Shown here piece after piece: positions 25,784 through 50,923 of a DNA stretch of 64,000 bases. The number at the start of each line of letters is the position of its first letter. Positions within the stretch are counted from its first letter, which is position 1. Under the pieces are notes generated by a model. It was not told the DNA's origin and did not search any database. It saw only the letters and a list, made by a program, of their open reading frames with translations. The position numbers and the translations under genes are program-made. The stretch comes from Escherichia coli (GTDB taxonomy: Bacteria; Pseudomonadota; Gammaproteobacteria; Enterobacterales; Enterobacteriaceae), in the NCBI RefSeq assembly GCF_044324785.1, contig NZ_CP172127.1. One strand, given 5' to 3'.

Positions 25784-26188
<405 letters not shown>

Positions 26189-26514
26189 TGGCCTCTGATA
26201 ATTCGATTGACCGTCGGCGGATGCGGCGCGAGTGCCTGGTCCGCCCTACAAGGCACCTCAATCGGAGGCCTGAGAAGACGCAACAGCGTCGCATCGGGCA
26301 ATCAGCATCAAACAATGCCACTCAAAACGTCAAATTACTTTCACCTAAAATACCCTTATCACCTGATATACAGTGAACACCTTACCTGGCGCGAATTTCT
26401 TTGAATAACGGCCTGCCGACCCGCTTATTTGCGCATCTTTTGTCTCGATATACATTTTCTGACATCCTCATCCGCTATGCTACAGGCACTAAAAATGGTT
26501 ATTGAGGAGCAAAT

Positions 26515-27174
26515 ATGGCTAACTGGTTAAATCAACTGCAATCCCTGCTTGGGCAAAGCAGTTCTTCTACCTCCTCGTCTGCGGATCAGGGATTGGGCAA
26601 ACTTTTAGTGCCTGGCGCATTAGGCGGACTGGCTGGGCTGCTGGTCGCAAATAAATCAGCACGTAAACTTCTTACGAAATATGGCACCAACGCGTTGCTG
26701 GTTGGCGGCGGAGCGGTAGCGGGTACGGTGCTGTGGAATAAATACAAAGATAAAATTCGCGCGGCGCATCAGGACGAACCGCAGTTTGGCGTGCAGAGTA
26801 CGCCGCTGGATGAGCGTACGAAACGTTTGATCCTTGCGCTGGTCTTTGCCGCTAAAAGTGATGGTCATATTGATGCCAAAGAACGTGCGGCAATCGACCA
26901 GCAATTGCGTGAAGCCGGCGTGGAAGAGCAGGGGCGTGTACTCATTGAGCAGGCAATCGAACAACCGCTGGATCCACAACGCCTGGCTACCGGGGTCCGC
27001 AATGAAGAAGAGGCGTTGGAAATCTATTTCCTGAGCTGCGCGGCTATTGATATTGACCATTTTATGGAACGCAGTTACCTGAATGCACTGGGTGACGCGC
27101 TGAAAATCCCGCAGGATGTTCGTGAAGGCATTGAACGCGATCTCGAACAGCAAAAACGCACTTTGGCGGAATAA
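26515..27174 (+). CDS. yebE: Inner membrane protein YebE (DUF533)
   Basis: 219-aa ORF recognised as YebE. Confidence 0.9.
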
Positions 27175-27306
27175 TTCCGCTCTCTGGATAGCCTGAAGTT
27201 GACGATTTCGGGCTATCCAGAACCGCACAGCCATTTGAGCAGGCTGATTTTCTCTGTCTGCATAACATTCGATATCCGCGCCATTACCTGTCATCATGTG
27301 ACTGCT

Positions 27307-27326
27307 CCCCGCCCTGTCGGGCGAGG
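27307..27326. repeat. Right-end subterminal hairpin of the IS (CCCCGCCC-tgtc-GGGCGAGG)
   Basis: Imperfect palindrome 12 nt past the tnpB stop codon; near-identical copy at the other end. Confidence 0.65.
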
Positions 27327-27337
27327 CTTCCCACTTC

Positions 27338-28507
27338 TTAAGCCGCAACCGTCTGTGTGACGGATTTACGCTGGCCTCCATGGGCAGAAACGACGAGTCC
27401 CGCCGCTTGTAATTCCAGTATGCCCTTGCGTTTGATGTTGAGCGCCGCGTTGATATCGCGGTCATGTTCAACTCCACACTCTGGACACTGCCAGATGCGC
27501 TTATGTAATGGCATCTCCGACATTTTGTGACCGCAGCAGTGGCAGGTCTTCGAACTGGCGAACCATTGATCCAGTTTCACCAGATGCACACCTTTCTCTG
27601 TTGCTTTGTATTCCAGTTTTGTGATGAATCCAGACCATCCAGCATCGCCTATCGCACGAGCCAGATGGTGATTTTTCATCATATTTGCCGTTTTCAATGT
27701 CTCGACAATTACCGCTTGGTTTTCGTCAACAATTGCGCGAGATAACTTGTGCTGGAAATCGGCACGGGCACTAGCTACCCGTTCGTGAACGGCTGCAAGT
27801 TGTATTCTGGCTTTGCGCCTGTTTGCGCTCCCTTTTTTCTTACGGGACAGTGCTTTCTGCTTCCGGCGCAGGTTGCGACTTGCATTGATTAGGTGGCGGG
27901 GACTGGCAATTTTATTGCCGTCCGATTTGATGACAAAATGCGCCAGCCCCATATCCAGCCCTGTCACATTTGATATCAGTGCGGGCTTTGCCGGCGCTTC
28001 CATCCCGTCGTCACAGAGTAACGACGCGTAGTATTTCCCGGTTGCGCTGCGGCTCAACGTGATACTTTTCAGCATTCCCGTAATTTCACGATGTAAACGC
28101 GCTTCAATCGGCAAGATTTTCGGTATTTTTATCGCACCATCAAGGACTTTTATGCCAACACAATGATAGCTCGATTGTCTGCCGTGTTTACTTTTAAAGG
28201 TTGGTTTACCTGCTTTCAGTTTCGGATTGAAAAAGTTAGAAAAAGCCACGTCGAGGTTAATTACCGCCTGCTGCAACGCAATAGAATCATATTCTTTAAG
28301 CCATCCATACCGGCGGGATTTCTTCGCCACTGCAAGCAGTGGTTTGAGGTCTTTACGCGGGTTTAAATTTACGCGGTGCCGCTGGTAAGAATGTTTCTTG
28401 ATATGCAGAGCTTTGTTGTACGCAAAACGCACTGCACCGAACTGGGCGTTGATAAATTCAGCCTGTTCTGGTGTCGGGTAGATGCGTACTTTTGTTGCTC
28501 TTAACAT
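27338..28507 (-). CDS. tnpB: TnpB (IS605 OrfB family; RuvC-like RNA-guided endonuclease)
   Basis: 389-aa ORF; RuvC-I GLDMG, RuvC-II E in VIVETL, zinc finger CHCCGH...CPECG, RuvC-III HDRDINAALNI. Confidence 0.9.
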   Translation of the reverse strand: MLRATKVRIYPTPEQAEFINAQFGAVRFAYNKALHIKKHSYQRHRVNLNPRKDLKPLLAVAKKSRRYGWLKEYDSIALQQAVINLDVAFSNFFNPKLKAGKPTFKSKHGRQSSYHCVGIKVLDGAIKIPKILPIEARLHREITGMLKSITLSRSATGKYYASLLCDDGMEAPAKPALISNVTGLDMGLAHFVIKSDGNKIASPRHLINASRNLRRKQKALSRKKKGSANRRKARIQLAAVHERVASARADFQHKLSRAIVDENQAVIVETLKTANMMKNHHLARAIGDAGWSGFITKLEYKATEKGVHLVKLDQWFASSKTCHCCGHKMSEMPLHKRIWQCPECGVEHDRDINAALNIKRKGILELQAAGLVVSAHGGQRKSVTQTVAA

Positions 28508-28563
28508 AATCAGCGCTCATTGATATAATGCTTTTATTTTAACACTTTAGGTGGATATATCAA

Positions 28564-28989
28564 TTGAGTAATCATGATGATTTACTGGCGGGATTTCTCC
28601 GCAAACGACACAGTGTCAGTAAGCTGGTTGTGCACCTTATTTTTACGACAAAGTATCGACGCAAACTATTCGACAGTCAGATGATCGCTCAGTTGCGTGA
28701 GGCTTTTGGCTCCGCTGCGGCAAAGCTTGAATGCGAAATTATTGAGATGGACGGGGAGCCAGACCATGTACACCTGCTGGTTGCCTACCCGCCAAAACTG
28801 GCGGTCAGTGTGATGGTCAATAATTTAAAATCGGTATCATCACGTTTGCTACGCCAGCAGAACGCGCATTTACGTATGCAGAGTAAAACGGGGCTTTTGT
28901 GGTCGAGATCGTACTTTGTCTGTAGCACCGGAGAGGCAACGATTGAAACGCTCAGAGCCTACGTTCAGAGTCAGTCAACACCTGATTGA
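28564..28989 (+). CDS. tnpA: IS200-type Y1 (HuH) transposase TnpA
   Basis: 141-aa ORF; TTKYRR block, HuH motif HVHLLV, C-terminal catalytic Tyr (RAYVQSQ); only in-frame start is TTG at 28564. Confidence 0.85.
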   Translation: MSNHDDLLAGFLRKRHSVSKLVVHLIFTTKYRRKLFDSQMIAQLREAFGSAAAKLECEIIEMDGEPDHVHLLVAYPPKLAVSVMVNNLKSVSSRLLRQQNAHLRMQSKTGLLWSRSYFVCSTGEATIETLRAYVQSQSTPD

Positions 28990-29022
28990 TCTTTAAAGCC
29001 CTGCGGGCTTTTCGCCTTATAT

Positions 29023-29044
29023 CCCCGCCCGCATTGGGCGAGGG
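29023..29044. repeat. Left-end subterminal hairpin of the IS (CCCCGCCC-gcatt-GGGCGAGGG)
   Basis: Near-identical to hairpin at 27307-27326; lies just beyond the tnpA terminator-like hairpin (28994-29011). Confidence 0.65.
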
Positions 29045-29118
29045 TTTACGGCGTTTTTCGCTAAGCAATGACTACCCTGTTTCGCTTGCATCTCCGGTGA
29101 GTTTTGCCACCCTTATAA

Positions 29119-31865
<2,747 letters not shown>

Positions 31866-34690: not shown

Positions 34691-34777
34691 AACATTTAAG
34701 CTGATGACCACCGCGCTTTTTATTGACCATTTTGCACGCAAACTGGAAAACCTGGCGTCGTCATCTATTCTTAAAGG

Positions 34778-34880
34778 GCAAGGCAACTAAGCCTGCATTA
34801 ATGCCAACTTTTAGCGCACGGCTCTCTCCCAAGAGCCATTTCCCTGGACCGAATACAGGAATCGTGTTCGGTCTCTTTTT
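34778..34880 (+). ncRNA. sdsR: SdsR (RyeB) sigma-S-dependent small RNA
   Basis: Sequence gcaaggcaactaagcctgcattaatgcc...gaccgaatacagg-aatcg-tgttcggtc-TCTTTTT recognised as SdsR; sigma-S-like -10 CTATTCTTAA just upstream; terminator hairpin plus U-run at 3' end. Confidence 0.85.
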
Positions 34881-35014
34881 ATCTGTTAAAAGCCAGAAGC
34901 ATTCCCTTCGCTGACTTTATAGTCAACCATAACACACACTCTACTGTCTGAGTCCAGCGTTTTTTAACATTCTTGTTAAGATTATGTGATCTTTAGCGCG
35001 GGAGGAAAATATTG

Positions 35015-49723: not shown

Positions 49724-50392
49724 TCCTTCCTCAATCTTGAGTAACCCCGTCGTTGAAGGGTTACTCAATTCATCCTGATTATACGCACTGCCATGGTGCA
49801 ACTGCTTCAAATTAAAACTCTGGTCTGACTTCAAATAATTATCATATTATTTATTTGCGTAACGGGATATCAGAAAAAGATATTTAGCCCATTAATTTAT
49901 TAGGATGTTTACATCGGATTTGTGATTAAGTGTGGTATTATTTATTAGCGAAACGTTTCTCTCTTGATTTTTTTGCGCATTCATCAATTTTTCTTATTTT
50001 AAATTTACAATACCTTTGGCGATTGACTTCTCTTTGGGGTGATTGATAGCCGTTAACTGACTGTTTTATGAGAAAAAGTGATATAACTTTTTATTCATTG
50101 CATAGCAGAAAATGTGATATTGCACGCACTATGTAATAACTTCTCCCATTGGCCTGGAACAACTGAACTTATTGAACTATGTTAGAAAATACGTCAGTTT
50201 AAGTATCTGCCTGAACTGGCAAGGTTAAGCACAATGATATATCGGCGCGTATTCCGTTGCATAAGTGTGCAAAAAAAGTGGAAGACGTATCGAGATTTGT
50301 GCGTCTGATCGAGACATGTTTAAAAATGGCTTGCCATAATTAACGTTGTATGTGATAACAGATTTCGGGTTAAACGAGGTACAGTTCTGTTT

Positions 50393-50536
50393 ATGTGTGG
50401 CATTTTCAGTAAAGAAGTCCTGAGTAAACACGTTGACGTTGAATACCGCTTCTCTGCCGAGCCTTATATTGGTGCCTCATGCAGTAATGTGTCAGTTTTA
50501 TCTATGTTATGCCTGCGGGCGAAGAAAACAATCTAA
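50393..50536 (+). CDS. yobF: Small protein YobF (47 aa)
   Basis: ATG..TAA encoding [47 protein letters not shown], 12 nt upstream of cspC; below ORF-track cutoff. Confidence 0.8.
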
Positions 50537-50548
50537 GGAATTTTTCAA

Positions 50549-50758
50549 ATGGCAAAGATTAAAGGTCAGGTTAAGTGGTTCAACGAGTCTAAAGGTTTTG
50601 GCTTCATTACTCCGGCTGATGGCAGCAAAGACGTGTTCGTACACTTCTCTGCTATCCAGGGTAATGGTTTCAAAACTCTGGCTGAAGGTCAGAACGTTGA
50701 GTTCGAAATTCAGGACGGTCAGAAAGGTCCGGCAGCTGTTAACGTAACAGCTATCTGA
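50549..50758 (+). CDS. cspC: Cold-shock-domain protein CspC
   Basis: 69-aa ORF; RNP motifs KGFGFI and VFVHF. Confidence 0.96.
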
Positions 50759-50803
50759 TCGAATCCACTGATCTGAAGTGTGAATACGCTTCAATCTCGC
50801 TAT

Positions 50804-50830
50804 AAAGCCTCGTCGAATGCGAGGCTTTTT
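50804..50830 (+). terminator. Rho-independent terminator after cspC
   Basis: aaagcctcg-tcgaat-gcgaggcttt hairpin followed by T-run. Confidence 0.8.
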
Positions 50831-50923
50831 ACTTTGCTTTCTCTTCGCTCCAGTCGTTCGGATATTTGCCCGCCGCGTGATTCGCGTTACACTTGCGGCC
50901 TTTAGTATCCTGCCGGAGTTGTC

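Follow-up and report, generated by a model that had tools for sequence, protein, structure and literature searches.

What does the insertion between yebE and ptrB, two neighbouring genes of the Escherichia coli chromosome, encode, and could its TnpB protein act as an RNA-guided nuclease? We addressed this question in a stretch of 64,000 nucleotides (nt) of contig NZ_CP172127.1 (assembly GCF_044324785.1), referred to here as the window, in which the gene order is purT-yebG-yebF-yebE-[insertion]-ptrB and the insertion, lying between the yebE stop at 27174 and the ptrB start at 29146, carries two divergent open reading frames (ORFs). The original prediction, made from the letters alone, held that this TnpB retains its RuvC triad and zinc finger and is served by a guide RNA (omega RNA) encoded at the right end of the element. 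Judged from sequence, the window holds an intact, autonomous and otherwise ordinary copy of ISEc46, a member of the IS200/IS605 family. We consider it likely that this copy comprises a complete TnpB of the ISDra2 clade together with a right-end omega RNA guided to the empty yebE-ptrB site.

Ends of ISEc46, adjacent motif and predicted guide

The limits of the element follow from comparison with the empty site of K-12, in which ...CATTACCTGTCATCAT is joined directly to CTAAGCAATGAC... The window matches this site through 27297 and again from 29061; no base is shared at either junction, the limits are unambiguous and a target duplication is absent. The name ISEc46 is taken from RefSeq, where a 99.9% identical copy carries the labels 'RNA-guided endonuclease InsQ/TnpB family protein' and 'IS200/IS605-like element ISEc46 family transposase'. 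The traits of that family are all present: besides the absence of target duplication, there are no terminal inverted repeats, like hairpins lie on one strand near both ends, and insertion occurred 3' of a fixed tetranucleotide. The same stem (CCUCGCCC/GGGCGGGG) stands on the same strand near either end, with a spacing of 17 nt at 29060 and 9 nt at 27298, which identifies the tnpB sense strand (window minus) as the top strand and places the left end at ptrB and the right end at yebE. Element features are collected in Table 1.

Table 1. Features of ISEc46 and its junctions in the window; negative numbers are counted back from the right end on the tnpB strand, with -1 at 27298
Feature	Position	Strand	Detail or basis
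ISEc46, whole element	27298..29060	-	1763 bp; ends from K-12 comparison
Transposon-adjacent motif TTAG (plus strand CTAA)	29061..29064	-	Directly 5' of left end
Left end	29023..29060	-	Subterminal hairpin CCUCGCCC-AAUGC-GGGCGGGG at 29043..29023, 17 nt from junction
tnpA, 141 aa, Y1 HUH transposase	28564..28989	+	Divergent from tnpB; NCBIfam NF033573
Divergent promoter-like sites	28501..28563	.	TTAACA-17-TATAAT (+, tnpA); TTGATA-16-TAAAAT (-, tnpB); consensus matches only
tnpB, 389 aa, RNA-guided endonuclease family	27338..28507	-	Pfam, NCBIfam, ISDra2 alignment
Predicted omega RNA scaffold, ~116 nt	27298..27413	-	Match of model R1 at 27411..27298, covariation, synonymous suppression
Stem 1, AAGCGGC (-111..-105) / GUCGUUU (-97..-91), loop GGGACUC	27388..27408	-	Pairs in alignment A3, minimum-free-energy fold
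Candidate pseudoknot strand GACU (-102..-99), partner AGUC (-6..-3, window 27303..27300)	27396..27399	-	Pairing, ISDra2 position
Stem 2, CCCAU (-87..-83) / GUGGG (-37..-33), encloses 3a and 3b	27330..27384	-	Pairs in A3
Stem 3a, GGCC (-79..-76) / GGCU (-47..-44); stem 3b, CCGUC (-66..-62) / GACGG (-56..-52)	27341..27376	-	Pairs in A3
Right-end subterminal hairpin = RNA stem 4	27307..27326	-	CCUCGCCC-GACA-GGGCGGGG, -29..-10
Predicted 16-nt guide AUGAUGACAGGUAAUG	27282..27297	-	yebE-side flank beyond right end

The right-end boundary is the same in nine independent E. coli contexts and in 77 gammaproteobacterial relatives, where homology ends right after ...GAGCAGTCAC; the common right-end sequence ...GAGCAGUCAC is present in all contexts and unrelated DNA begins beyond ...GTCAC. 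Since homology ends there in every context, the guide would be the flank read from 27297 to 27282, as the original prediction had proposed in drawing it from the yebE-proximal side, with a length of 16 nt borrowed from ISDra2. On the tnpB strand the sequence after the right end reads ATGATGACAGGTAATG, and in K-12 the same ATGATGACAGGTAATG is preceded directly by TTAG. Alignment with other copies, which had been suggested as the way to define both the right-end boundary and the left-end motif, thus delivered each of them: the boundary at 27298 and the motif TTAG. Read on the tnpB strand, three independent ISEc46 copies show CTTAG, CTTAG and GTTAG immediately 5' of the left end, and TTAG stands at the left-end junction in 55 of 62 distinct family contexts. 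At the filled site TCAC, the tip of the right end, takes the place of TTAG and leaves two motif mismatches.

Both alleles are found in the species. Junction-specific queries of complete E. coli genomes recovered a contiguous empty joint in 5025 of 5426 and the right-end/yebE junction in 400. A simpler count, the 448 genomes with at least 80% query coverage, was rejected as a measure of the locus because the element alone makes up 84% of that query.

TnpB and the predicted omega RNA scaffold

All four motifs claimed for TnpB are present in its ORF: RuvC-I (GLDMG, from residue 183; D185 codon at 27953-27955), RuvC-II (VIVETL, from residue 266; E269 codon at 27701-27703), the zinc finger (CHCCGH from residue 322 and CPECG from 341, with Cys322/325/341/344 within 27476-27544) and RuvC-III (HDRDINAALNI, from residue 348; D351 codon at 27455-27457). 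The interval to which they had been assigned, 27295-27480, includes only RuvC-III and the last of the cysteines, the other motifs being upstream of it. The nearest natural relative with a solved structure is the active ISDra2 TnpB of Deinococcus radiodurans (8bf8/8exa), at a phmmer E of 3.6e-74 and 38% identity by BLASTP (E 1e-84); PDB entries 8bf8, 8exa and 8h1j together with PMC10097598 and PMC8612924 describe this protein and its omega RNA (reRNA). In the phmmer alignment D185/E269/D351 fall on ISDra2 D191/E278/D361, the catalytic centre according to the ISDra2 TnpB cryo-EM paper, and Cys322/325/341/344 fall on C331/C334/C351/C354, the zinc ligands, so that a check for substitutions at the catalytic Asp and Glu positions found none. 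The protein contains the Pfam domains HTH_OrfB_IS605, OrfB_IS605 and Cas12f1-like_TNB (PF07282, E 4.6e-25) and passes the NCBIfam model NF040570 (guided_TnpB) with 342 bits against a cut-off of 100. Judged by its residues, the ISEc46 protein belongs to the ISDra2 clade of RuvC nucleases and has the full catalytic set, and cleavage is predicted for it.

To describe the RNA we aligned the last ~143 nt of the element from 53 distinct sequences (alignment A3), drawn from 80 loci found by protein search and from the E. coli copies, read the structure from this alignment and compared its pair counts with 500 shuffles and with partners slid by one to three columns. Base pairing holds in 97.5% of the A3 cells, compared with 85.0 ± 0.5% in the shuffles, none of which (0/500) reached the observed value; double compensatory changes number 190 cells in 16 pairs where 51 ± 5 are expected, and the covariation score is 0.386 versus 0.154 in shuffles and 0.03-0.11 with slid partners. 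About 200 of the cells are G-U pairs that would read C-A on the opposite strand, which assigns the fold to the tnpB sense strand. The conserved structure that the original prediction called for over the tnpB 3' end is thus found, on the strand that it named and spanning both the end of the gene and the right-end hairpin, but the scaffold is shorter than the minus-strand RNA of roughly 27480-27280 then envisaged (~116 nt, from 27413 to 27298, rather than ~180). Its 5' limit, -116, is taken over from the ISDra2 scaffold by analogy.

Each stem contributes to this signal. Pairs in stem 1 exchange as whole units (A3 pair 37-49, GC 36 and CG 17; 39-47, CG 34, AU 7 and UA 2), as do those in stem 2 (61-114, CG 45 and UA 7; 62-113, CG 33, AU 12 and UA 7) and stem 3a (72-101, CG 32, AU 10, UA 5 and UG 4), and four of the five pairs of stem 3b show 8-24 double changes. 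Stem 4, with arms at -29..-22 and -17..-10 around a GACA loop, is represented by pairs 121-153 (CG 46, AU 7), 124-150 and 127-147 (CG 29, GC 17). A minimum-free-energy fold of the single sequence recovers most of these helices, stem 1 included (z = -2.5). The strands GACU and AGUC of the candidate pseudoknot pair in 95.6% of cells and are both nearly invariant in the family.

Three other helices were considered and set aside. An outer helix proposed by RNAalifold (A3 columns 17-19/159-161) was replaced because it takes up tail bases that form the pseudoknot in ISDra2, and a two-pair helix from the same program (74-75/102-103) because its register conflicts with that of the covarying GGCC/GGCY helix (68-72/101-104). 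A GCG/UGC helix seen by eye (columns 74-76/98-100) was dropped, being broken in the Idiomarina and Halomonas groups. Separately, members of Idiomarina, Aliidiomarina and the Halomonas/Vreelandella group (loci L076-L079, L083, L086, L087, L089, L090 and others) carry an extra hairpin of 13-16 nt (e.g. GUGGCGCUUUAGCGCUU) within the stem 4 loop, at A3 columns 128-142, and this hairpin compensates too (GGCGC/GCGC versus GGUCGC/GCGAC).

The scaffold reaches back over the final 25 codons of tnpB and over its stop codon (27340..27338, or -43..-41). Among 44 distinct intact ORFs, the codon difference between pairs encoding the same amino acid falls from 0.42 over residues 1-340 to 0.34 over 341-365 and 0.21 over 366-389, while amino-acid identity stays at ~0.77 throughout the same three regions. 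This synonymous drop at steady amino-acid identity points to a second constraint on the nucleotides of the overlap.

The covariance-model search suggested for this region gave a divided answer. Rfam gave no relevant match at E<=10 over 26000-30000, whereas a custom model built from the trimmed family alignment (R1) matched 27411..27298 at 126 bits, and this match stops precisely where K-12 and 86 other contexts place the right end. The one further match of R1 in the window is the left-end hairpin (29046..29023, partial, E 2.3). Beyond the family, R1 gives a full-length match (1706-1822, 33.5 bits, E 2.6e-6) in a locus of Deinococcus aquaticus that encodes a TnpB with 82% identity to the one of ISDra2. 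By the published ISDra2 numbering position 1822 of this locus is the right end, with a GGUUCAA tail and the U of the stop codon at -10; GGGAU occupies -106..-102, and the stem 2 bases stand at -84..-81 and -35..-32, as published for ISDra2. With filters off, R1 also finds the 3' ends of tnpB in another Deinococcus (26.8 bits), in two Nostoc loci (22.2 and 20.5 bits) and, weakly, in Bacillus (10.5 bits, E 0.13), and all of the Deinococcus, Nostoc and Bacillus loci so matched end in UUCAA; in the Deinococcus and Nostoc loci the match spans the entire model.

These matches show co-linear homology to the loci of an RNA of the ISDra2 type, which in the cryo-EM paper consists of a 116-nt scaffold and a 16-nt guide, with stem 1 at -116..-111 and -91..-86, stem 2 at -84..-81/-35..-32, stem 3a at -77..-71/-48..-42, stem 3b at -70..-49, a stem 4 tetraloop at -20..-17 and a pseudoknot between -5..-3 and -105..-103. 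The ISEc46 scaffold is of about the same length; its stems 2, 3a, 3b and 4 and its candidate pseudoknot strand lie within a few nt of the same positions (the stem 4 tetraloop at -21..-18), and in both systems, which share the TnpB clade, the triad and the zinc finger, the RNA runs over the stretch that encodes the dispensable C terminus of TnpB. Across the R1 alignment the candidate pseudoknot shows one compensatory change between families, C-100:G-5 here corresponding to A-103:U-5 in Deinococcus, next to A-101:U-4 corresponding to G-104.U-4; we rate it as a likely, though putative, part of the ISEc46 RNA. The two elements differ in motif (TTAG versus TTGAT), in the right-end tip (AGUCAC versus GUUCAA), in the orientation of tnpA (divergent in ISEc46, co-directional in ISDra2), in the position of the tnpB stop (-43..-41 versus ~-10..-8) and in protein length (389 versus 408 aa). 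When the published stem 1 coordinates of ISDra2 were applied to ISEc46 and to D. aquaticus, the bases were not complementary and the assignment was rejected; each of the two sequences folds locally into a hairpin instead, and the loop of this hairpin contains the candidate pseudoknot strand.

Alternative explanations and proposed mechanism

Several observations weigh against the reading of ISEc46 as a complete TnpB-omega RNA system. The narrower NCBIfam model NF038281 (IS200_TnpB) is missed, at 383 bits against a cut-off of 425. Searched at E<=10 over 26000-30000, Rfam yields no relevant match, RF03065 and RF02998 included, and the whole window has none at gathering score; the E<=10 matches in that interval belong to unrelated families at chance level (HgcC at 15 bits, naRNA4, mir-4662). 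RF03065 and RF02998 are models for RNA motifs that lie where IS605 orfB genes end (3'), and only a small share of TnpB RNAs falls within these models (PMC10055086). The candidate pseudoknot lacks covariation within the family in A3, and stem 1 (-111..-105/-97..-91), a compact hairpin with a 7-nt loop, departs from the published stem 1 coordinates of ISDra2. The signal in stem 4 could reflect the requirement of TnpA for a DNA hairpin. Finally, the assay of PMC10055086 found the TnpB of IS608 inactive although its motifs are intact, and an intact triad is therefore no guarantee of activity.

The point about stem 4 can be extended to an account in which all of the conserved structure serves DNA, as a single-stranded right end for TnpA under additional coding constraint, with functional RNA absent. 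An almost identical hairpin at the left end fits this account, and as TnpA cleaves at the terminal TCAC, the invariance of these bases is explained without RNA. IS200/IS605 ends need a hairpin and about 10-20 nt, however, and stems 1, 2, 3a and 3b reach well past that, sitting 33-111 nt inside the element and within tnpB. They also covary strongly, with frequent G-U pairs, in a layout that agrees with the ISDra2 RNA seen by cryo-EM; we regard a DNA-only origin as very improbable. Least credible of all is domestication of this TnpB into a TldR-type, RNA-guided repressor in place of a nuclease. Such derivatives occur in enterobacteria (PMC10705468), but here the RuvC triad and zinc finger are complete, the gene is inside a complete mobile element with tnpA and both ends, and the guide is specific to each insertion.

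A more serious competitor, though still one that we think unlikely, is that the system is correctly built but silent or inactive in E. coli, TnpB and its RNA being relics of a vertically inherited insertion that performs no guided cleavage. The presence of the same insertion in 400 genomes fits vertical inheritance, the IS608 result provides a precedent, the promoter scan found no dedicated promoter upstream of the scaffold, and several E. coli copies have decayed. Those decayed copies (L005 1647-2463, L009 2201-2459, L010 1892-2451), whose tnpB carries an IS1 cut, an IS630-family interruption or a frameshift, largely keep the scaffold and right end. Against an inactive relic stand the intact tnpB ORF, here and in many independent contexts, a purifying constraint on the overlap beyond coding needs, and the many Photorhabdus and Idiomarina copies at different TTAG-flanked sites, which imply recent mobility. 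The family is multi-copy at different sites in Photorhabdus (L020-L042; at least nine loci in Photorhabdus thracensis) and in Idiomarina loihiensis (L057, L060, L061, L084-L086; at least six loci), and as each copy has its own right-end flank and has TTAG at the left end, we conclude that it has been mobile recently in both.

Under the preferred reading of ISEc46 as an intact system, the last ~116 nt on the tnpB strand would fold into a scaffold with stems 1, 2, 3a, 3b and 4 and probably the pseudoknot, and transcription reading on into the flank would add a guide of ~16 nt, AUGAUGACAGGUAAUG. As the promoter scan found no convincing site just upstream of the scaffold, the omega RNA would most likely be excised from the tnpB mRNA, and self-processing of TnpB RNA from mRNA has been reported (PMC10278001). 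Removal of the top strand by TnpA would leave a rejoined donor site composed of TTAG and the guide target, which the TnpB-omega RNA complex would then cut, after which the element would be regained through recombination with a sister copy that carries it. Filled sites themselves would escape cutting because TCAC occupies the place of the required TTAG. Homing of this kind is established for relatives (PMC10055086). In that study the ISGst TnpB of Geobacillus stearothermophilus shares one left-end motif with TnpA, the donor joint recreates motif and target, and the guide comes from the right-end flank, the same logic that we predict for ISEc46; homing and retention were tested experimentally there, whereas ISEc46 is known from sequence, and the sequences and motif of the two differ.

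On the transposition side ISEc46 resembles IS608/IS605 of Helicobacter pylori, the reference for IS200/IS605 transposition. They share a Y1 HUH TnpA, insert 3' of a tetranucleotide without duplicating the target, and carry like hairpins near their two ends on a single strand, the left one set further from its junction (17 versus 9 nt in ISEc46). In IS605, tnpA and tnpB are divergent, as in ISEc46. The motif and tip of ISEc46 are TTAG and TCAC, compared with TTAC and TCAA in IS608. TnpA scores 141.8 bits with NF033573 (cut-off 55), and its HVH motif and C-terminal Tyr are seen in the translation.

Relatives, neighbouring features and meaning

The promoter-like sites for tnpA and tnpB found by consensus scan fall in the 56-bp spacer between the two genes. 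A second hairpin (AAAGCCC-(loop)-GGGCTTT, window 28994-29012) follows the tnpA stop, ahead of the left-end hairpin, and may be a tnpA terminator; it is kept, with an altered loop, in relatives that lack tnpA. The latter are plasmid-borne in E. coli (L006 1127-2462, L007 1133-2462, L008 1127-2462) and ~86% identical in DNA, with tnpB, both ends and the RNA scaffold present; all three have a TCAG left flank and GAGAAC instead of GTAAAC beside the left-end hairpin. One of them sits in the leading region of its plasmid, flanked by psiA and ardA, and another is in a plasmid beside terminase and phd/doc genes. The 80-90% identity band holds 238 records. Two further relatives come from metagenome-assembled genomes. 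A 1960-bp contig of a 'Collinsella sp.' assembly (L011) is 99% identical to ISEc46 with the same E. coli flanks (...GTCATTGCTTAG on the left, ATGATG on the right) and looks like mis-binned E. coli DNA, and the 88% protein identity in a 'Candidatus Paceibacterota' assembly (L013) may be a similar case.

Outside the element, a near-perfect 17-bp palindrome (TCTGGATAGCCTGAAGT...ATTTCGGGCTATCCAGA, window 27183-27221), with no T-run on either strand, lies just past the yebE stop; K-12 has it too, so it does not belong to ISEc46. Between yebF and yebE, at 26170-26318 on the minus strand, two sub-threshold naRNA4 matches (28 and 25 bits; gathering score 59.5) are probably repeats of the repetitive extragenic palindromic type. 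Rfam matches at gathering score elsewhere in the window comprise SraC/RyeA (-) overlapping SdsR/RyeB (+), a cspA-type thermoregulator leader (+) and ES036/CssrF (-), at 34740-34884, 50373-50833 and 1714-1755.

TnpB/omega RNA systems are well described, the gene and element are already named in RefSeq, and the overall picture of such systems is unchanged by our results. No characterisation of ISEc46 TnpB was found in the searched literature, in which all 23 mentions of ISEc46 looked incidental and came mostly from resistance-genomics surveys. For ISEc46 and its gammaproteobacterial relatives the analysis adds precise ends, the motif TTAG and a scaffold that covariation supports and Rfam fails to detect; the RNA, its limits and the TTAG motif of this clade are in neither Rfam nor the searched literature. 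We also raise, tentatively and as something we would not yet bet on, the idea that ISEc46 at yebE-ptrB behaves in E. coli as a naturally occurring allele drive, with a guide that matches the empty allele while the filled allele is shielded by TCAC. If this is true, cells that hold both alleles, whether after TnpA excision, conjugation or transduction, would convert empty to filled, and the filled/empty polymorphism would reflect drive as well as descent. The tnpA-less relatives with the TCAG flank, on F-like and P1-like plasmids, may do likewise between plasmid copies. In practical terms, ISEc46 would provide a native E. coli system with a natural target, and since its filled and empty alleles coexist in sequenced strains (400 versus 5025), homing, retention and off-target cost would be testable where genetics is easiest.

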